From a phage, in sequence record PX880098.1: a DNA stretch of 44,688 nucleotides; one strand, 5' to 3'. The translations under genes and the position numbers were made by a program. Positions 1 through 44,688 of this stretch are shown in pieces. A model generated the notes under the pieces. It searched no databases. It was not told the DNA's origin and was given only the letters and a program-made list of their open reading frames with translations. Position 1 is the first letter of the stretch, and every line of letters starts with the position of its first letter.

Positions 1-1227
1 ATGTTGCTTCTCCCCCACCAATACGAGCTATTGGCAGATACCACGACAAAGATAATCGGGCTGTGTTCCGGATTCGGGGGTGGTAAAACGTACAGTGCCG
101 CGCGTAAAGCGGTGCATCTGGCTCTTCTCAACCCTGGCGTAGACGGAATAATAACAGAGCCGACGTTCCCTCTGTTGGTGCAGGTTATGTTTCCAGAACT
201 TATGGCGGCGCTGGACTTCTTCGGCGTCAAATACAAGTTCAACAAGGTCGAGTCTATTTTTTATTGCGACATCAATGGCCAAACAACCCGTATTATTTGC
301 GGAAGCATGGAGAACTATCAGCGACTTATCGGTATAAACGCCGCGTGGTGTGTGTGCGACGAGTTTGATACCGCTAAGCAAGAAACGGCTTATGCCGCGT
401 ACATGAAGCTGCTGGGTCGTCTTCGCAGGGGTAACGTGCGTCAATTGGTAATAGTGTCCACCCCCGAGGGATTCAGGGCTATGTACCAGATATTCGTAAC
501 CGAAGCAGATGCCAGCAAACGGCTAATACGAGCGAAGACAACCGATAACTACCACTTGCCGGCAGACTACGTAGAGTCAATGCGCAGCCAGTACCCTGAG
601 CAACTCATAAACGCCTACCTGAATGGCGAGTTCGTAAACCTTACATCTGGGGTTGTGTATTACGGGTATCAACGGGGTAAATGTGAATCTAACGAAACTA
701 TTAAACCGGGTGAACCGCTATACATTGGGCAGGATTTTAACGTCGGCAAAATGGCGTCGTGCGTTTATGTAAAACGCGGTGCTGATTTTCATGCGGTAGC
801 CGAGTTGGTCGACCTTTTTGATACCCCTGATGTAGTTCGCGTTATCAAGGAGCGGTGGGCCGGGCATCATATAATTATGTACCCAGACGCCAGCGGACGT
901 AACCGTAAAAGCAACTCCGCTTCCACATCTGACATAGCTATCCTGGAGCAAGCAGGATTTGAGATTAGAGCTAAATCAAAGAACCCACCTGTGAAAGACC
1001 GTGTTGCCGCTAGTAACGCCGCATTTGAGAAAGGTAGAGTCTTTGTTAACTCGAAGGCTTGCCCAGCAACGACACGTGGGTTAGAGCAGCAGGCCTACGA
1101 TAAAAACGGTGAACCAGAGAAGAATGGTGTAATCGACCATATGGTTGACGCCGCGACATATTTGATCGCTTACGAGATGCCAGTAGTTAAACCTGTCATT
1201 AATATACCGGTTACTTTCGCTCTCTAA
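1..1227 (+). CDS. terL: terminase large subunit
   Basis: 408-aa ORF; Walker A P-loop GFGGGKT near the N-terminus; first gene of the head block, directly upstream of a portal-sized ORF; preceded by terS and HNH at the other window end. Confidence 0.8.
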   Translation: MLLLPHQYELLADTTTKIIGLCSGFGGGKTYSAARKAVHLALLNPGVDGIITEPTFPLLVQVMFPELMAALDFFGVKYKFNKVESIFYCDINGQTTRIICGSMENYQRLIGINAAWCVCDEFDTAKQETAYAAYMKLLGRLRRGNVRQLVIVSTPEGFRAMYQIFVTEADASKRLIRAKTTDNYHLPADYVESMRSQYPEQLINAYLNGEFVNLTSGVVYYGYQRGKCESNETIKPGEPLYIGQDFNVGKMASCVYVKRGADFHAVAELVDLFDTPDVVRVIKERWAGHHIIMYPDASGRNRKSNSASTSDIAILEQAGFEIRAKSKNPPVKDRVAASNAAFEKGRVFVNSKACPATTRGLEQQAYDKNGEPEKNGVIDHMVDAATYLIAYEMPVVKPVINIPVTFAL

Positions 1228-1246
1228 CGCGCATGTGTTACCCTTT

Positions 1247-1272
1247 AAAAAGCCGCTTAATTGCGGCTTTTG
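1247..1272 (+). terminator. stem-loop after terL
   Basis: AAAGCCGC-TTAATT-GCGGCTTTT hairpin just after the stop codon; T run is short. Confidence 0.4.
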
Positions 1273-1375
1273 CCGTGGGTGAGATTCCTTAGTGCAACTA
1301 TCGTGTGATACCCTGTCAGCACTAGGCGGGCGAATTCTTGCGCCCTGATATAGCCAACATGAGGGCCAGCGAACA

Positions 1376-23708: not shown

Positions 23709-23890
23709 TTCTTACCTTCGCTTTTCTTGAAACTGCACTTTATGTCCGGCAGCGTGTAGCACCGTGATTTTTCGTATTTACCGTTCGAGCTTACCAAAAC
23801 AAAGCTGTTGCCGTCTTTTGATATGTACTCGACAATAAAAGTATTGGATGTATGTACGCTGTATATTTCGTCTCCAACATTAAGCTTCAT
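23705..23890 (-). CDS. hypothetical protein (61 aa)
   Basis: ATGA-coupled ORF downstream of helicase gene. Confidence 0.5.
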   Translation of the reverse strand: MKLNVGDEIYSVHTSNTFIVEYISKDGNSFVLVSSNGKYEKSRCYTLPDIKCSFKKSEGKK

Positions 23891-26352
23891 TTCTTACCTC
23901 GTCTCTTCATGTAATTAAGCAATTCTTCCTGGACAGATTTCTTCTCGTCAGTGCGCGCGGCGACAACCTCATCCAGCGTGTCTTTAGCAACGATGTGGTA
24001 TAGGAACACAGGGCGCTCGTGACCCGCCTGTTTCTGGCGTACTGGGCCTATACGCTCAACAACCTGCAAATAGTGCTCAAGGTTCCAGCCTTGTGAAATG
24101 AATGCCAGATGATGCCCTCCGTCCTGTAAATTCAAACCATGGCCCGCTGACGCAGGATGCACGCATAATATTTCGATTTCCCCGCGGTTCCACGCTTCCA
24201 TCTGCTTATTACCTTTAACGCCTTTGGCAAACGCCTGCGCCTGCGGGAATCGCTTAAGGATGCGCTCCAGTTCGTGCTTGAACTGATAGGCCACTAGTAA
24301 CGGCGCACCCTGTAGCTCCTCAACAATGGACTCCAGAGCATCCAGTTTCGTGTCGTGTACTTTCTCCCAGTCTTTCGTTGCTTCGCCATCTGGCCCTGAT
24401 ACGTATACGGCACCGGATGCAATCTGCAGACACTTAGAGGTCTTCGCCGCAGCGTTAGCCGCTTCAACTTCTCCGCTCTCCAGTTCAGCAAATAACTTCT
24501 CCTCCATATCGATGTACGCCTGACGCGCTTTCTTCGGCAGGTCAATTTCAACCGGTACAATTATTGGCGCTTCACAACCAAACCACTCGGCAGCGTCAAT
24601 CGTGAGACTAATGTCCTTCATCTTCTGGTGAATTTCGTTATCCGCACCTGGGCGGGCGTGGTATTCGCGCGCCATAGCCGATTTGCCTTTCTGTACCGAG
24701 TTAAACCAGCGGTCGGTGAATGCTGTGTATGATGACCCCAGGCGCTCGCCAGCGTCGATAAACCAGTTCTGGCCCCACAAGTCCTTGAGGCCGTTTGGTG
24801 ACGGTGTACCGGTCAGATTGATGAAACGTTTAACATTACCGAACGCCACTTTGCTTAGTGCCTTTGCTCGCTTGCTTCCGCCAGAACGGCTGCGGAATGA
24901 TTTCAACTTCGTGCTCTCATCGGCAACAATAACCGTAAAAGGCCAGTCGTCTTTGCCGTAGTAGTCAATCAGCCACTCGATTACCTCATAGTTCGTGCAC
25001 ACCACGTTAGCGTCGGACTCCAGCGCCGCGATGCGGCGCTTCTCTGAACCGGTCGCATCTACGACGCGCAGACAAGGGAAACCCCACTTAGTTTGTTCTG
25101 CCGGCCATGTGCCGGACGCAACACGCAACGGCGCAAGGATTAACACACGGTCGTCATCATTAAGTTGGCCGTTGCGGAACAGCCGATTGAGAACCCACAT
25201 CGTCGAGCTTGTGTTGTGCGTTACGGTGAAGTCGCCTAATAGAAACCGGTGGTCACCGTCGATAGTGAAGCCGTAATAATCATCTACGCCGACCGGGGTT
25301 ATAGATTCTATTCCAACGTTAAGTACGTTTTTATTAATATTACGCTTCGGTAAATTCTGGTGGCGGCCACGCACGAAAGGCACCTCAGAAAAATCGCCTG
25401 ATACCGATACGCGGAAGTAATCCCCCCAAACATCAGTGTTTGCGCAACGCTTACGAGTTTTCTTCTTGTAAGCGGCGAAACCAAGAGAACGGCATAGATA
25501 GCAAAAATCATCAGCGAGTCGCTCGCTTACCGAAATCCAGTCAAAACCTGCTTTAGACAAATCACAATAACCGTCGCTATCCAGAAGCCCCGCCAGCAAT
25601 TCTAAACGTTGCTGCCGGTCGCCGCATTTGTAATTATGCGGTATATGCTTATGGTTCAAGACCCCCGCCGACCTCAGCGCGTGCGTAAGCCCGTGCTTCT
25701 TATTGCCAGTATTGCCGTAAGATATACTCCATGTAAGTCCTTCTTTTCGTATTTGCATCCCATTACGCGCTGCGTACGATTCAAGATACTCCCTTATTTC
25801 CTTTTCGTTTTCCCCAGATGTTATGGCTCCCGACGATGAGGTGCCATCACCAAGCCACAGCCCCATAAGGTACGGGGGCAATAAAGCATCGTCCTGATCT
25901 TTCCTCGGGAAATCGACAGGTACTCGCCAACCCTTAAGATACCCATTAGGTCCGGTTACATATTTCGGCAACTTAAGCCAGTCGCGGACGCTTATGTCGA
26001 AAACGGTATTATCCGGCCATGAACCCTTTGCTATCCCTGTAGTAGTTCGCAGTGATAATATATGGCTTTCGTTTACCGTATACGACTCTCCTTTTCGCGG
26101 TTTAACCTCGTACATCATCTCCCGGCCTCTACCGAGAGACAGTACATTTCTAGGCGTTGAATCTGGCCCCATAAGCACGTCACCGACGATGACGTCTTCT
26201 ACTTTCTTGGTCGTACCGTCAAACATAATAACTTCAGTCCCGCGTTTCAGGCACTTGCCGCTACCCATACTTGCCCAGATATTACAGCGCGGGTTCCGCA
26301 GCATGAACGAGGTCATGAGCTTTTGATAAGGCCTTCTAGTGAATTTACTCAT
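23887..26352 (-). CDS. SNF2-family helicase interrupted by an intein
   Basis: Walker A split as MGSGK|intein|TSS; DExx-like box VIVADESTKLK; NLTGTPSPNGLKDLW and GHGLNLQDGG helicase motifs. Confidence 0.75.
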   Translation of the reverse strand: MSKFTRRPYQKLMTSFMLRNPRCNIWASMGSGKCLKRGTEVIMFDGTTKKVEDVIVGDVLMGPDSTPRNVLSLGRGREMMYEVKPRKGESYTVNESHILSLRTTTGIAKGSWPDNTVFDISVRDWLKLPKYVTGPNGYLKGWRVPVDFPRKDQDDALLPPYLMGLWLGDGTSSSGAITSGENEKEIREYLESYAARNGMQIRKEGLTWSISYGNTGNKKHGLTHALRSAGVLNHKHIPHNYKCGDRQQRLELLAGLLDSDGYCDLSKAGFDWISVSERLADDFCYLCRSLGFAAYKKKTRKRCANTDVWGDYFRVSVSGDFSEVPFVRGRHQNLPKRNINKNVLNVGIESITPVGVDDYYGFTIDGDHRFLLGDFTVTHNTSSTMWVLNRLFRNGQLNDDDRVLILAPLRVASGTWPAEQTKWGFPCLRVVDATGSEKRRIAALESDANVVCTNYEVIEWLIDYYGKDDWPFTVIVADESTKLKSFRSRSGGSKRAKALSKVAFGNVKRFINLTGTPSPNGLKDLWGQNWFIDAGERLGSSYTAFTDRWFNSVQKGKSAMAREYHARPGADNEIHQKMKDISLTIDAAEWFGCEAPIIVPVEIDLPKKARQAYIDMEEKLFAELESGEVEAANAAAKTSKCLQIASGAVYVSGPDGEATKDWEKVHDTKLDALESIVEELQGAPLLVAYQFKHELERILKRFPQAQAFAKGVKGNKQMEAWNRGEIEILCVHPASAGHGLNLQDGGHHLAFISQGWNLEHYLQVVERIGPVRQKQAGHERPVFLYHIVAKDTLDEVVAARTDEKKSVQEELLNYMKRRGKK
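25213..26253 (-). mobile_element. intein with LAGLIDADG homing endonuclease domain (347 aa)
   Basis: Begins with Cys after GSGK, ends THN followed by Thr; two LAGLIDADG-like motifs LMGLWLGDGTS and LAGLLDSDGY; C-terminal block FLLGDFTVTHN. Confidence 0.75.
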
Positions 26353-42581: not shown

Positions 42582-42863
42582 ATGGCACGTACTGTTTCCG
42601 CGAGATTCACTGATATTGAATCCGCTATAGAAGAAGCCGTTTATTGTAGATTTTGCAACCCCTCCGCAGTACATAACTACGGAGTTATTGTTAAATACGG
42701 CAAGTTTGAGGTTAGAAGGGTGCGCGCCGACCGTCCGTACGAGTTTTTATGGACAACAGAAAGCCTCATCCCGCGGTGCCACATTTACACAAGCGGTGCA
42801 CATACGATTTTTGTAGACCTTAACAAGAAAGATATTACCGTCACTAAAGGAGAGACAAATTGA
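42582..42863 (+). CDS. hypothetical protein (93 aa)
   Basis: ORF with ATG 42582. Confidence 0.5.
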   Translation: MARTVSARFTDIESAIEEAVYCRFCNPSAVHNYGVIVKYGKFEVRRVRADRPYEFLWTTESLIPRCHIYTSGAHTIFVDLNKKDITVTKGETN

Positions 42864-43096
42864 TTACCAGCATCCCTAAACTGATTGAAGAGTACGGAAA
42901 TATGTCGGAGACTTGCCGACAAACCGGTATCTGCGAGATGACGATTGCCAAGTACAGCAAAGACGTGAACTGCGAGCGCCACGTAATTTATAACAACCGT
43001 CTGATGACGCACGTTAAGACAAGCCCGGTGTTATTCACGCGCCGGGGTATCACTAAAACTGAGCAACGTATCGCACGAGGTGAGAGCGGGGAATGA
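42860..43096 (+). CDS. hypothetical protein (78 aa), possible HTH
   Basis: TTG start 6 nt after AAGGAGAGACA leader; ETCRQTGICEMTIAKY could form an HTH. Confidence 0.45.
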   Translation: MITSIPKLIEEYGNMSETCRQTGICEMTIAKYSKDVNCERHVIYNNRLMTHVKTSPVLFTRRGITKTEQRIARGESGE

Positions 43097-43197
43097 GACT
43101 ATTAATCATCCCTAACGCCTGGGCTATTGCCGTAGCCAACGACCACTACGGCGGAGATGGTAAAAGAGCACCACGACACGGCCTATACAACTGATGC

Positions 43198-43223
43198 AAG
43201 CCCTCTACGGAGGGCTTTTCTGT
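43198..43223 (+). terminator. rho-independent terminator
   Basis: AAGCCCTC-TACG-GAGGGCTT followed by TTCTGT. Confidence 0.6.
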
Positions 43224-43315
43224 ACATCCCGCCCAATCCCCTTATATAATCCCTTTAGACGCGTAGGGCGCGTCTGGTGCGCTCTGATGGTCAGACGCAT
43301 ATGCAAGGGGATTCT

Positions 43316-43825
43316 ATGAAGCTGAAACTTAAGCAGCCATCGCCGGAGGTGGTGCAAGCTGCACATGAAGAAGCTGTTAGCGCAAACCGTCGCCGTAAAC
43401 GACCGCGCGGTAAACAGAGCCTTTATCAATCATCCCATAATTCCGCCGCGTTGTGGGACCCGGACTATTGCGACGCGTTAATCGAGTTCTTCGACCGCAC
43501 GTCGTGGGAACTTGTGCCCACGTCCAAAGGCGACGAACGTCCGCTGATTAAGGATAAACCACCATCACTGGCCCGCTTCGCCTTACACATCGGCGTCACT
43601 ATCCCGATTATTAAGCTGTGGTTGCGCGAGATTCCCGCATTTGCAGAAGCCTATGAAACGGCACAGGCACTGGAAGAGGCATATTTCACTGAGACAGGCG
43701 CGGCGGGTATCTCTGCTACGTTTGCCGCTGCGAAGCTGGGGTTGAATAAGAAAGACGAACCTGAGAGCGAAGGCAATACATCGCAGAACATCACAGTAGT
43801 GATAAAGAAAGATACAGGCGAGTAA
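43316..43825 (+). CDS. terS: terminase small subunit (putative)
   Basis: Position upstream of terL across the window junction; basic N-terminal region RRRKRPRGK; SD AAGGGG 6 nt before ATG 43316; no motif confirmation. Confidence 0.5.
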   Translation: MKLKLKQPSPEVVQAAHEEAVSANRRRKRPRGKQSLYQSSHNSAALWDPDYCDALIEFFDRTSWELVPTSKGDERPLIKDKPPSLARFALHIGVTIPIIKLWLREIPAFAEAYETAQALEEAYFTETGAAGISATFAAAKLGLNKKDEPESEGNTSQNITVVIKKDTGE

Positions 43826-43849
43826 TAGACGGGCTAGATAATTGATGTT

Positions 43850-43883
43850 AGTATCAACCCATCCATTGAAGTGGGTTGATACT
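43850..43883 (+). repeat. perfect 12-bp inverted repeat abutting the HNH start codon
   Basis: AGTATCAACCCA (43850-43861) and TGGGTTGATACT (43872-43883) with 10-nt loop; ATG at 43884. Confidence 0.6.
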
Positions 43884-44681
43884 ATGAATTACGAAAAGAT
43901 ATACGAAAGCCTGATAGCTCGTTGTAGGTCGTTACCCCGCCAGGGCTACACCGAAAGACACCACATACTGCCGAGGTCCTTAGGCGGTGATGACTCCCCT
44001 GAGAATCTTATTGATCTATCCGCAAGAGAACATTTCTTCGCGCATCTCCTTCTGGCAAAAATCCACGGTGGTAACATGTGGGCCGCTCTGGCATACATGT
44101 CAAGAGGCGGCACTAAGTCAAGCAAACTGCATAAATGCACATCCCGTCAGTATGAGTTTATAAAGCGTAAAGACGCTGAATGGCGTAGCTTGAGGTACCG
44201 CGGGGATAAGAACCCGTTCTACGGGAAAACACATTCACCACAAGCCCTGGTGAAAATGCGCAAACCTAGGGTCAATAAAGAGAGACTTTTTGGGCGGACG
44301 GTGCCAGGTGTCGGGGCTATCATATCGTTTGTGCAGACGTATAAACCCCGCGCGGTAGAAATAGATACTACGGTTAGAGACCGAATTGATAGTTGGTTCA
44401 CGGTAGACGAGGAACTGCGGCAGCTTAATGTATTCCTCGCCCGTAGCCAGGGGCAGAAAGCGCTCAATCGCGACCACCGCGGCGAAAAGAACCCAAACTA
44501 CGGCAATGGGAAAGCCATATCAGGCGAAAAGAACCCGATGTTTGGAAAGAAACACAGCGAAAGCACCAGGGCCAAAATTGCGGAGAAAATGAAACGCACT
44601 ATGGTGTGCCCGCACTGCGGCAAAGAATCTAACATAGCAAACGCACATAGGTGGCACTTTGACAACTGCAAACACAAATGA
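43884..44681 (+). CDS. HNH homing endonuclease with NUMOD-like DNA-binding repeats
   Basis: HNH core YTERHHILPRSLGGDDSPENL...EHFFAH; repeated NPFYGKTHS and KNPNYG/KNPMFGKKHSESTRAKI NUMOD3-like motifs; C-terminal CPHCG...C zinc finger. Confidence 0.7.
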   Translation: MNYEKIYESLIARCRSLPRQGYTERHHILPRSLGGDDSPENLIDLSAREHFFAHLLLAKIHGGNMWAALAYMSRGGTKSSKLHKCTSRQYEFIKRKDAEWRSLRYRGDKNPFYGKTHSPQALVKMRKPRVNKERLFGRTVPGVGAIISFVQTYKPRAVEIDTTVRDRIDSWFTVDEELRQLNVFLARSQGQKALNRDHRGEKNPNYGNGKAISGEKNPMFGKKHSESTRAKIAEKMKRTMVCPHCGKESNIANAHRWHFDNCKHK

Positions 44682-44688
44682 GAAAGAG

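Follow-up and report, generated by a model that had tools for sequence, protein, structure and literature searches.

A Mob-type homing endonuclease gene between terS and terL and its probable spread with a terL cassette in Guernseyvirinae phages

Whether an HNH endonuclease gene lodged between the small and large terminase genes of a phage acts as a mobile element or belongs to the packaging machinery is the question raised by the locus analyzed here. The window, by which we mean the whole 44,688-nt stretch of DNA under analysis (sequence record PX880098.1), represents a circular genome opened at terL: it begins at the terL ATG and ends 7 nt past the HNH stop codon, and the contiguity of terS, the HNH gene and terL is directly visible in EP-B-K_E2 and LSPA1. 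An earlier note had placed the HNH gene between the two terminase genes, and this arrangement is borne out by the ORFs on either side, the upstream one matching PHROG 3064 and the downstream one Terminase_6N/6C. The features of the locus are as follows.

1-1227 (+): terL, large terminase, HNH-linked allele (Terminase_6N/6C)
1228-1375 (+): terL-portal spacer, 148 nt, right end of the cassette (97-98% identical to LSPA1, TU03 and PK1)
43221-43250 (+): sigma-70-like promoter candidate, TGTACA-18-TATAAT, upstream of terS (consensus match only)
43316-43825 (+): terS, small terminase, 169 aa (PHROG 3064 'terminase', E = 7.9e-73)
43751-43825 (+): terS 3' tail, ending in ITVVIKKDTGE and the stop, left end of the exchanged cassette (sequence comparison)
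43849-43884 (+): predicted RNA hairpin, 13 perfect pairs and one G-U, loop of 8-10 nt (fold, conservation)
43884-44681 (+): Mob-type free-standing HNH homing endonuclease gene, 265 aa (Pfam, PHROG, MobE alignment)
43953-44045 (+): HNH (His-Me finger) catalytic core, residues 24-54 (E24, H26, H27, N41, H50, H54)
44511-44582 (+): best NUMOD3 DNA-binding repeat, residues 210-233, with a second stretch upstream (Pfam, 1i3j)
44607-44669 (+): C-terminal CCHC zinc finger, C242, C245, H258 and C262 (invariant in 56 homologues)
44649-44661 (+): Shine-Dalgarno AGGTGG (44649-44654) and in-frame TTG (44659-44661), probable terL start (conservation)

The HNH gene and its protein

The HNH ORF extends on the plus strand from an ATG at 43884 to a stop codon at 44679-44681. 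Two further in-frame starts lie 5' of this ATG (ATG 43845 and TTG 43842), and 43884 was taken as the real start because the homologues, T4 MobE included, all begin with MNY. The encoded protein matches PHROG 655 'homing endonuclease' (E = 4e-59) and, in two stretches, the Pfam NUMOD3 model (E = 1e-18), as well as the Pfam HNH model with a score just under its cut-off (E = 4e-4; 20.9 bits, cut-off 21.4). In a 56-sequence family alignment, residues E24, H26, H27, P30, G35, N41, H54, C242, C245, H258 and C262 are invariant, which confirms the HNH core and the CCHC zinc finger, and the catalytic residues E24, H26, H27, N41, H50 and H54 vary little or not at all both in this and in a 12-sequence alignment. 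T4 MobE can be aligned end to end with the window protein (33% identity, 100% query coverage, E = 2e-23 in tblastn). A PDB sequence search with the HNH protein identified the I-TevI DNA-binding domain 1i3j as a match to the NUMOD3 segment (E = 0.045) and returned no other match, while structure searches yielded only local and weak matches to HNH domains.

An Rfam scan of positions 43100-44688 found no intron match, and the gene is a separate ORF outside any intron or intein. Together with the full-length homology to MobE, the NUMOD3 match and the invariant zinc finger, this upholds the initial description of a free-standing HNH/NUMOD homing endonuclease, whose nuclease activity is predicted from its conserved catalytic residues. 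The distinction that had been drawn from the short HNH packaging cofactors also holds, as the protein is Mob-like, 265 aa long and devoid of CxxC pairs at its HNH core. Across intact HNH copies, dN/dS values of 0.07-0.11 (0.011 for terL) clearly point to purifying selection. The helicase intein reported alongside this gene was likewise recovered, in a minus-strand ORF (23887-26352) encoding an SNF2 helicase with Hom_end_hint (8.8e-23) and LAGLIDADG_3 (1e-7) matches.

The 3' end of the HNH gene probably harbors the true start of terL as well. The Shine-Dalgarno AGGTGG and the in-frame TTG sit within the zinc-finger codons and generate a 23-nt overlap between the two genes. Both elements are kept in K1M, L011, L012, L013, L016 and L098, where the ATG is absent, and in L171-L176 gene callers put the terL start at positions overlapping the HNH gene.

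Distribution, decay and exchange of the terL cassette

Comparison of terS-terL junctions in related phages revealed a presence/absence pattern, with about 170 Guernseyvirinae records lacking the HNH gene. The whole gene is present in only 4 of the 146 phage records matching terS, and among the 175 records that match the portal gene only six match the window terL at the DNA level, these being exactly the records with the HNH gene or a remnant of it. Presence among close relatives is hence sporadic, at a fixed site, and no 'never invaded' copy of exactly this terL allele was found. In the wider terL clade, the HNH gene is found in K1M, L011, L012-16 and L098 and is absent in L093, L094/95 and eiAU. 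Orthologues down to 47% identity occur in many distant phages, always located immediately upstream of terL and overlapping it, and metagenomic orthologues fall into about 75 clusters.

The six records with this terL allele comprise one intact copy of the HNH gene, two identically frameshifted copies and two independent microhomology deletions, and their TerL proteins are 99% identical throughout. The frameshifted copies belong to LSPA1 (ORF02) and TU03, where GenBank entries label the gene 'homing endonuclease'. They are orthologues of the window gene (93% nt identity) with the same position, hairpin and terL allele, but common 14-nt and 10-nt deletions introduce a stop after residue 58 and turn them into pseudogenes split into two ORFs, whereas the window copy is intact. 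In PK1 the gene was lost between CGATGTT repeats, together with the inverted repeat that precedes it, and in FSL SP-101 it was lost between GGGCTA repeats. Since the gene is frameshifted or deleted while TerL remains 99% identical, it appears to be dispensable for packaging in these relatives. An orthologue present throughout and required for packaging is thus contradicted by absence in about 170 records and by decay or deletion in four viable relatives. The deletions invariably spare the final 119-153 nt of the HNH gene, a stretch that likely persists because the terL Shine-Dalgarno and TTG start lie within it. In L093, the terS tail (RDNSHS) could be read as the scar of a lost HNH gene, but the resemblance is perhaps a coincidence, as the bases in common specify MTT, the conserved N-terminus of terL.

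The exchanged unit consists of the terS tail, the HNH gene, terL and the 148-nt spacer. Between Kagunavirus and Jerseyvirus this cassette is about 93-98% identical, whereas its flanks are 77-81% identical. At the nucleotide level, identity of the window to Jerseyviruses is 80-81% in the terS 5' part, 88% in the terS tail, 93% in both the HNH gene and terL, 97-98% in the spacer and 77-79% in the portal gene. With HNH-less Kagunaviruses, in contrast, terS shares 91-94% nt identity as far as approximately position 43750, and the tail beyond it, 88-93% identical to that of Jerseyvirus cassette carriers, has no DNA homology to typical Kagunavirus tails. The same type of tail (ITVVI(K/Q)xD) accompanies the same terL type in the HNH-less contigs L093-L095. 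The terL allele itself shares only 39-53% aa identity with the terL of other Guernseyvirinae, and typical Kagunaviruses present just 12 nt between terL and portal. The longer spacer found here carries a GC hairpin followed by TTTT, which was considered as a firm terminator and dropped, since the four T residues fall below the threshold of the terminator scan.

These identities indicate that the HNH gene travelled between phage genera along with the neighboring terL. The insertion between terS and terL proposed in the earlier note is therefore correct as to position but not as a simple insertion, given that the gene arrives with a different terL allele as an exchanged cassette. Within terL, mismatches between the window and Jerseyvirus are distributed unevenly, with 18-21 in the first 650 nt and 64-65 in the last 574 nt (Fisher p ~1e-8), and third codon positions hold over 90% of them. 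In the terL 5' half, EP-B-K_E2, also a Kagunavirus, differs from the window at 36 positions, more than the Jerseyvirus copies do, and the newest conversion tract has its center around the HNH 3' end and this half of terL. The cassette boundaries were rejected as a guide to the cleavage site, as they mark where homology resumes.

Probable cassette mobilization and alternative explanations

We consider it probable that the HNH gene is a free-standing Mob-type (MobE-like) homing endonuclease that mobilizes the cassette under the control of a hairpin. The gene would be read from a late terS-HNH-terL transcript, with a 14-pair hairpin over its weak Shine-Dalgarno and AUG presumably keeping translation low. 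Upon co-infection, the enzyme would nick or cut the HNH-less genome of a rival close to the boundary of terS and terL or to the terL 5' end, possibly at the same position relative to its neighbor gene as MobE does in nrdB. Because the rival terL is too diverged to recombine, repair would have to extend to the homologous terS and portal, so copying the entire block of terS tail, HNH gene, terL and spacer. Once resident, the HNH gene decays or is deleted, as seen in the relatives. Such homing is hinted at indirectly by the transfer of the cassette and by the gradient of the conversion tract.

MobE has no promoter, introduces a nick at the 5' end of the gene that follows it and mobilizes flanking DNA (PMC2790892), and the apparent absence of an own promoter and the mobilization of flanking DNA link the window gene to the Mob family at large (MobA-E; Aeh1 mobE) (PMC2790892). 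Like the window protein, T4 MobE contains an HNH core, NUMOD3 and a C-terminal CCHC finger in the same order, and its gene likewise lies between two essential genes with almost no spacer (nrdA-mobE-nrdB, with overlapping stops and starts). The host here, however, is a 44.7-kb siphovirus and not a T-even phage, the locus is terS/terL and not nrdA/nrdB, the element brings an entire diverged allele of its essential neighbor, and the start codon of this neighbor is inside the endonuclease gene. Homing endonuclease genes are known to cluster near terminase genes and at genetic-exchange boundaries (PMC10448857), and the HEG islands described by Barth, Dunham & Seed (2023) similarly constitute endonuclease-bounded blocks of high identity that hold essential structural or packaging genes, recur in phages with less similarity elsewhere and favor the neighborhood of terminase genes (PMC10448857). 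Those islands involve the T5orf172 and IPA-HNH families, exceed 10 kb and are flanked by endonucleases, whereas the cassette studied here spans about 2.3 kb with a single Mob-type gene at one end, and features in addition a nested conversion tract and documented stages of decay. The window gene is therefore a clear case of an element type already known, not of a new one; what is new here is the cassette organization of terS tail, HNH gene, terL and spacer.

It is unlikely, in our view, that the HNH gene is a relic or passenger of a block that crossed between genera through ordinary homologous recombination within terS and portal, the endonuclease being uninvolved. Selection could in that case perhaps act on a different terL that evades host defense, or on the need for the terS tail to match terL. 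The ends of the block are the points where homology to other alleles resumes, and any recombination would give the same ends; moreover, at least three terL types occur at this Guernseyvirinae locus, all without an HNH gene, and half of the carriers harbor dead copies. Purifying selection on the intact copies, on the other hand, would be unexpected for a functionless passenger, the newest conversion tract is not randomly spread but centered around the 3' end of the HNH gene and the 5' half of terL, and MobE, the characterized member of the family, drives just this type of flanking-marker transfer (PMC2790892).

Even less probable is that the HNH protein works as an accessory of this terminase type, aiding concatemer cutting by terL in the manner of HK97 gp74 or the Skunavirus HNH protein. 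Packaging factors of this sort are well established next to terminases (PMC3592412; discussed in PMC10448857), and the window gene resembles them in adjoining the terminase genes. The order of small ORF or terS, HNH gene and terL is maintained in all orthologues at 47-94% identity, a range of no fewer than 10 lineages and three families of terS. The HNH gene extends into the start of terL, its dN/dS is close to 0.1, and the HNH tree broadly agrees with the terL tree. A purely selfish element would not usually be linked to terL so stably, and a terL-tied role would likewise be in keeping with this linkage. The gene is nonetheless frameshifted or deleted in four viable isolates with near-identical TerL, near terL relatives (59-64% identity) lack it entirely, and phiP4-7 carries the same HNH clade beside a different terL type. 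Furthermore, enzymes of the HK97 gp74 type are short, contain a [CxxC]2 site in the HNH core, are encoded beside cos, ahead of terS, and enhance cutting by the terminase (PMC3592412; PMC10448857), whereas the 265-aa protein described here is Mob-like with NUMOD3, has no [CxxC]2 zinc site (PMC3592412), has its gene between the two terminase genes and can be dispensed with in relatives, and the associated terL is of the T4-like Terminase_6N/6C type. It hence departs from the gp74 type (PMC3592412) in size, zinc site and position, and in not being intact wherever the cognate terminase occurs.

The hairpin at the HNH start and wider implications

The mobilizing endonuclease favored here would be expressed under the constraint of an inverted repeat at its start codon. 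The 12-bp perfect repeat originally noted was recovered (arms 43850-43861 and 43872-43883), but it is in fact 13 bp long (43849-43861 and 43872-43884) and includes the A of the ATG instead of ending 1 nt short of it. It is the only separated-arm inverted repeat of at least 11 nt in the 44.7-kb window. The corresponding RNA folds into 14 pairs (-21.4 kcal/mol, z = -3.6; none of 200 shuffles folds as well), and the weak Shine-Dalgarno-like GAAGTGGGT (43868-43876) is covered by this structure, as is the first nucleotide of the AUG. Pairing probability from -13 to +3 reaches 0.90 at the HNH start, compared to a maximum of 0.71 and a median of 0.50 in an approximate background of 59 other gene starts. 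The hairpin of L171 shows a compensatory C:G to U:A change, those of LSPA1 and TU03 present G:U in place of G:C, and the loop varies among relatives; K1M and L011 bear another hairpin, over a GAGG Shine-Dalgarno, with a G:C/A:U swap between the two. This covariation involves four distinct sequences and is matched by 145 of 500 shuffles, and occlusion of the start region is weak or nonexistent in phiP4-7, L012-16 and L098. No Rfam family matches the hairpin, and a role as terS terminator was ruled out because no U tract follows it.

The hairpin thus probably throttles HNH translation by burying the Shine-Dalgarno and AUG. Of the two roles suggested for the repeat in the earlier note, translational control gains support from the pair-preserving substitutions and the occluded start, whereas marking of the insertion boundary does not. 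That the repeat acts instead at the DNA level, whether as an insertion scar or as an operator or other site bound by the endonuclease or by a different protein, is very improbable: it is a perfect palindrome-like repeat right at the gene boundary, and I-TevI autoregulates its expression via a DNA operator, but the C-to-T change in LSPA1 and TU03 keeps the RNA G-U pair while spoiling DNA symmetry, the double change in L171 preserves pairing as the loop drifts, the start regions of K1M, L011 and the distant L017 and L019 are unrelated in sequence yet fold over Shine-Dalgarno and AUG, the left cassette boundary lies about 100 nt upstream in terS, away from the repeat, and PK1 lost the repeat together with the gene.

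A promoter scan of positions 42800-44688, with phage-specific promoter types lying outside its scope, identified only the TGTACA-18-TATAAT site upstream of terS, so that the HNH gene appears to lack a promoter of its own. A T4-style late promoter inside the hairpin was also considered and dropped, as there is no promoter-like site between terS and the HNH gene; an RNA made from the GATAAT at 43837-43842 would have its 5' end at the foot of the stem and would hence contain the entire hairpin. Hairpins sequestering the ribosome-binding site control I-TevI, I-TevII, I-TevIII, segB and Aeh1 mobE (PMC2988022). The window gene resembles Aeh1 mobE in this respect (PMC2988022), and I-TevI in both hairpin control and its NUMOD3 module (PMC2988022), although I-TevI has a GIY-YIG catalytic domain and is intron-encoded. 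As in this class, the stem engages the Shine-Dalgarno and AUG and pair-preserving changes are present (four distinct sequences), but a promoter for a hairpin-free late transcript is absent; in contrast to the Mob family, no late promoter that could relieve the block was found in the hairpin.

A broader possibility, which we put forward tentatively and hold to be rather doubtful, is that the HNH gene and terL, interlocked by the terL Shine-Dalgarno and start within the zinc-finger codons, form a co-evolving cassette with a matching terS tail that spreads across genera, as between Kagunavirus and Jerseyvirus, by replacement of the whole terL of rival phages and cannot be fully lost once the endonuclease is dead, and that the terL diversity of the Guernseyvirinae largely reflects sweeps of homing endonuclease genes.

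The intact, frameshifted and two independently deleted copies form a small natural set that captures the life cycle of a homing endonuclease. The coliphages and Salmonella phages concerned are small and easy to engineer, and HNH-less relatives that could serve as recipients, such as the BASEL Kagunavirus isolates (PMC11990801), are at hand. In engineering these phages, a clean removal of the HNH gene would take the probable terL start with it, and where phages are applied together in a therapeutic cocktail, an element of this kind would be expected to transfer markers among them non-reciprocally. The pattern suggests that a single homing endonuclease gene is able to take a complete essential packaging gene from one genus to another, and cross-genus transfer of terL bears on phage taxonomy and terL-based typing.

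A Mob-type endonuclease gene between the terminase genes

The window spans the full genome of a Kagunavirus-like siphovirus (Guernseyvirinae), linearised from a circle; its closest public match is Escherichia phage EP-B-K_E2 (~94% identity across the region). Because it was opened at terL, starting at the terL ATG and ending 7 nt past the HNH stop codon, the terS-HNH-terL order becomes visible only once the circle is closed; the contiguous terS-HNH-terL-portal arrangement can be viewed directly in EP-B-K_E2, LSPA1 and TU03.

Features of the terminase locus and of the intein-bearing gene
43316-43825: terS, small terminase gene; PHROG 3064 match
43884-44681, plus strand: HNH gene, ATG at 43884 to stop at 44679-44681, 265 aa; NUMOD3 and PHROG 655 matches
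1-1227: terL, large terminase gene; Terminase_6N/6C match
23887-26352, minus strand: SNF2-type helicase ORF, 821 aa, carrying an intein

The ORF, its NUMOD3 and PHROG 655 matches and those of terS and terL bear out the proposal of the earlier note that an HNH/NUMOD gene separates the terminase genes. The same holds for the helicase intein as the second homing-type element of the genome, given its Hom_end_hint (8.8e-23, residues 34-108) and LAGLIDADG_3 (1e-7, residues 248-305) domains. The region upstream of terS (43164-43250) contains a GC hairpin with a T run (GCAAGCCCTCTACGGAGGGCTTTTCTG, ~43196-43222) and, directly 3' of it, the only sigma-70-like promoter of the region (43221-43250); a below-threshold Rfam isrB match (43164-43220, E=0.21) is probably due to chance.

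The HNH protein matches NUMOD3 in two stretches (Pfam, E=1e-18) and PHROG 655 'homing endonuclease' (4e-59), with a Pfam HNH score marginally below the gathering score (20.9 vs 21.4 bits). T4 MobE aligns with it end to end (33% identity, E=2e-23), as do, at full length, hundreds of Mob-like genes of T4-like phages. In alignments of 12 sequences including MobE and of 56 database homologues, HNH residues E24, H26, H27, P30, N41 and H54 and the C-terminal CCHC finger (C242, C245, H258, C262) are invariant, and H50 is invariant among the 12 and at least 90% conserved among the 56. The AlphaFold model is a confident one, with a pLDDT of 83 overall and above 90 over residues 1-105; structure searches yielded no more than local HNH-domain matches of weak statistical support, and one NUMOD3 repeat is matched by the I-TevI DNA-binding domain. 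MobE is an experimentally established homing endonuclease: its gene lacks a promoter, and the enzyme nicks nrdB, the next gene downstream, in the 5' region, with mobilisation of the DNA on either side (PMC2790892). Judged by sequence, the window gene likewise belongs to the free-standing HNH homing endonuclease genes of the Mob type, and in LSPA1 the decayed orthologue already carries the annotation 'homing endonuclease'.

More distant Mob-like HNH genes (~34% identity; L017 12-1781, L025 773-3009, L028 2031-4171) lie between the halves of a RecA/UvsX-like gene, and the flanking ORFs end or begin with split-intein-like sequence (...VVSHN / ...IIHN), a layout known as the 'fractured gene' arrangement (PMC2677866).

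Distribution, decay and association with terL

The whole HNH gene was found in only 4 of 146 phage records matching terS, and the window terL was matched at the DNA level in only 6 of 175 portal-matching records. These six (EP-B-K_E2, LSPA1, TU03, PK1 and FSL SP-101 under two accessions) are exactly the records holding the HNH gene or a fragment of it, and in the remaining Guernseyvirinae terS abuts a different terL allele, 39-53% identical to that of the window at the amino acid level. Comparison of terS-terL junctions, a check suggested in the earlier note, showed the insert to be variably present. The gene is intact in EP-B-K_E2 and the metagenomic contig L171, whereas a 14-nt and a 10-nt deletion common to LSPA1 (China) and TU03 (Nepal) lead to a stop after residue 58, and deletions between CGATGTT repeats in PK1 and GGGCTA repeats in FSL SP-101 have left only its last 153 and 119 nt. 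Intact copies are, by their dN/dS of 0.07-0.11 (vs 0.011 for terL), under purifying selection, and the series of intact, frameshifted and deleted copies follows the textbook course of a homing endonuclease gene from invasion through decay to loss.

Both deletion remnants contain short ORFs that may be kept for translational coupling to terL. In PK1 (L008 1331-1500), the upstream ATG is fused in frame to yield a 47-aa ORF ending at the old HNH stop; in FSL SP-101 (L004 3628-3752), a 30-aa ORF with a GGAG Shine-Dalgarno encodes the zinc finger alone up to that stop.

Outside the genus, the nearest homologues belong to Citrobacter phage K1M (59% amino acid identity) and Plesiomonas phage phiP4-7 (52%), in both of which the gene again separates terS from terL. 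The order small ORF/terS, HNH, terL recurs in every recovered IMG/VR orthologue of at least 51% identity and in four further metagenomic orthologues (80, 63, 51 and 47%), and the HNH 3' end extends 4-44 nt past the terL start as called. Three unrelated terS families precede these orthologues, and the terL genes beside them are mostly related to the window allele (56-69% identity), though in phiP4-7 the partner is a phage-26-type terL. HNH and terL trees are roughly congruent. This persistent linkage is the chief argument for a rival explanation, in which the HNH protein is a packaging partner of terL. Against it stand the dead HNH copies of the carriers: TerL is 99% identical to that of the window even beside frameshifted or deleted HNH genes, so the gene is dispensable for packaging by the window-type terminase. 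The rival is also countered by HNH-free relatives, as terS directly joins a terL 59-64% identical to the window's in L093, L094/95 and Edwardsiella phage eiAU, and lineages with and without HNH interleave on the terL tree. A gp74-type packaging HNH was rejected on size, zinc site, position and dispensability (criteria from PMC3592412).

Exchange of a terminase cassette between genera

Nucleotide identity of the Kagunavirus window to three Jerseyviruses (LSPA1, TU03, PK1), by segment
Upstream region: ~77% (PK1); LSPA1 and TU03 align over at most 16%
terS 5' part: 80-81%
terS last 75 nt: 88%
HNH: 93%
terL: 93%
148-nt terL-portal spacer: 97-98%
Portal: 77-79%

An ordinary Kagunavirus displays the opposite pattern, with 92% identity to the window in the terS 5' part, 91% in portal and no usable DNA homology between them, indicating that the block spanning ~43751-44688 and 1-1375 moved horizontally between the two genera. 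Nested within it is a younger tract, from ~44591 to ~650 of terL, with an identity of 0.96-1.00 to LSPA1 and PK1 that drops on either side. Mismatches in terL number 18-21 in the first 650 nt vs 64-65 in the last 574 nt (Fisher p ~1e-8), over 90% of them at third positions, and in the terL 5' half the window is nearer to the Jerseyvirus copies than to the Kagunavirus EP-B-K_E2 (36 mismatches). MobE-type homing would produce a conversion gradient of this kind, with its centre at the 3' end of the endonuclease gene and the 5' end of the gene that follows, and may have done so here.

The exchanged spacer (1228-1375), replaced by a 12-nt gap in ordinary Kagunaviruses, is strongly structured (z = -2.7), and its hairpin AAAAAGCCGC-TTAATT-GCGGCTTTTG (~1248-1274) resembles a weak terminator, below the scan threshold. 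Comparison of window 1-1227 with L003 3629-4864 and L007 1350-2573 revealed that one Guernseyvirinae locus, flanked by conserved terS and portal genes, is occupied by at least three highly divergent terL alleles: that of the window, the 22664BS2 type (53% amino acid identity) and the phage 26 type (39%). The terL locus has the look of a replacement hot spot, for which endonuclease attack, terS-tail matching and escape from terL-sensing defences are candidate causes. The terS tail 'ITVVI(K/Q)xD' accompanies window-type terL even in HNH-less contigs; the terS C-terminus contacts terL, and a matching tail would fit that contact.

Start signals of the HNH and terL genes

The inverted repeat preceding the HNH gene is real, but it is longer than the 12 bp first described, with 13 perfect pairs (43849-43861 / 43872-43884), and does not end 1 nt before the start codon, since its final base is also the first base of the ATG. 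It is the sole separated-arm inverted repeat of at least 11 nt within the 44.7 kb. As RNA it folds into 14 pairs (-21.4 kcal/mol, z = -3.6; 0 of 200 shuffles as stable), burying both the weak Shine-Dalgarno-like GAAGTGGGT and the AUG. Mean pairing probability at positions -13 to +3 is 0.90, vs a maximum of 0.71 and a median of 0.50 at 59 other approximate window gene starts and 0.33-0.53 for terS and terL. All 14 pairs are kept across four distinct sequences while the loop drifts, with a double C:G to U:A change in L171 and G:C to G:U in LSPA1 and TU03; with so few sequences, the covariation shuffle control (145/500) is not significant. K1M and L011 present a different hairpin over a GAGG Shine-Dalgarno, a compensatory swap separating the two versions, and the distant L017/L019 genes a 10-bp stem ending exactly at the ATG; in phiP4-7, L012-16 and L098 the start region is little occluded. 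Hairpins sequestering the ribosome-binding site control I-TevI/II/III, segB and Aeh1 mobE (PMC2988022). Here, in contrast to those genes, our scan detected no internal promoter from which a transcript free of the hairpin could arise; its sole promoter-like site lies upstream of terS. We accordingly interpret the hairpin as throttling HNH translation constitutively.

Just 5' of the hairpin, 13 codons before the real HNH start, lies an in-frame ATG (43845-43847) that is conserved in EP-B-K_E2 and LSPA1 and picked by gene callers (database cluster P0001, 278 aa, 219 members); its K1M equivalent opens an 8-codon mini-ORF ending in the hairpin loop. Ribosomes initiating at 43845 would unfold the hairpin as they translate across it, which could provide leader-peptide style activation of the HNH gene.

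At the other end of the gene, K1M, L011, L012-16 and L098 lack an ATG at the position of the window terL ATG, but conserve an in-frame TTG after AGGTGG within the HNH zinc-finger codons (...AGG TGG CAC TTT GAC AAC TGC...).

Window equivalents of the conserved terL start signals
44649-44654: probable terL Shine-Dalgarno (AGGTGG)
44659: probable terL TTG start

On these signals, the likely terL start falls within the HNH gene, giving a 23-nt overlap; this would explain why the 3' stretch is conserved at the DNA level even in K1M and phiP4-7 and why both natural deletions keep it. At 44659-44669, TTGACAACTGC encodes F-D-N-C of the Mob zinc finger and, in the next frame, M-T-T-A of terL; in the HNH-less L093 (~690-710) the same bases, (G)TGACAACT, encode R-D-N-S of the terS tail and the M-T-T of the terL start. 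This may be coincidence, or microhomology where the endonuclease gene first joined terL.

Homing endonuclease genes adjoining terminase genes and at exchange boundaries have been described (PMC10448857). Added here are a documented cross-genus cassette including a whole terL allele, the conversion tract nested within it, a likely terL start embedded in the endonuclease gene and a conserved, probably translational hairpin at the HNH start. The locus is mainly useful as a tractable system in which to test homing-driven replacement of an essential gene.
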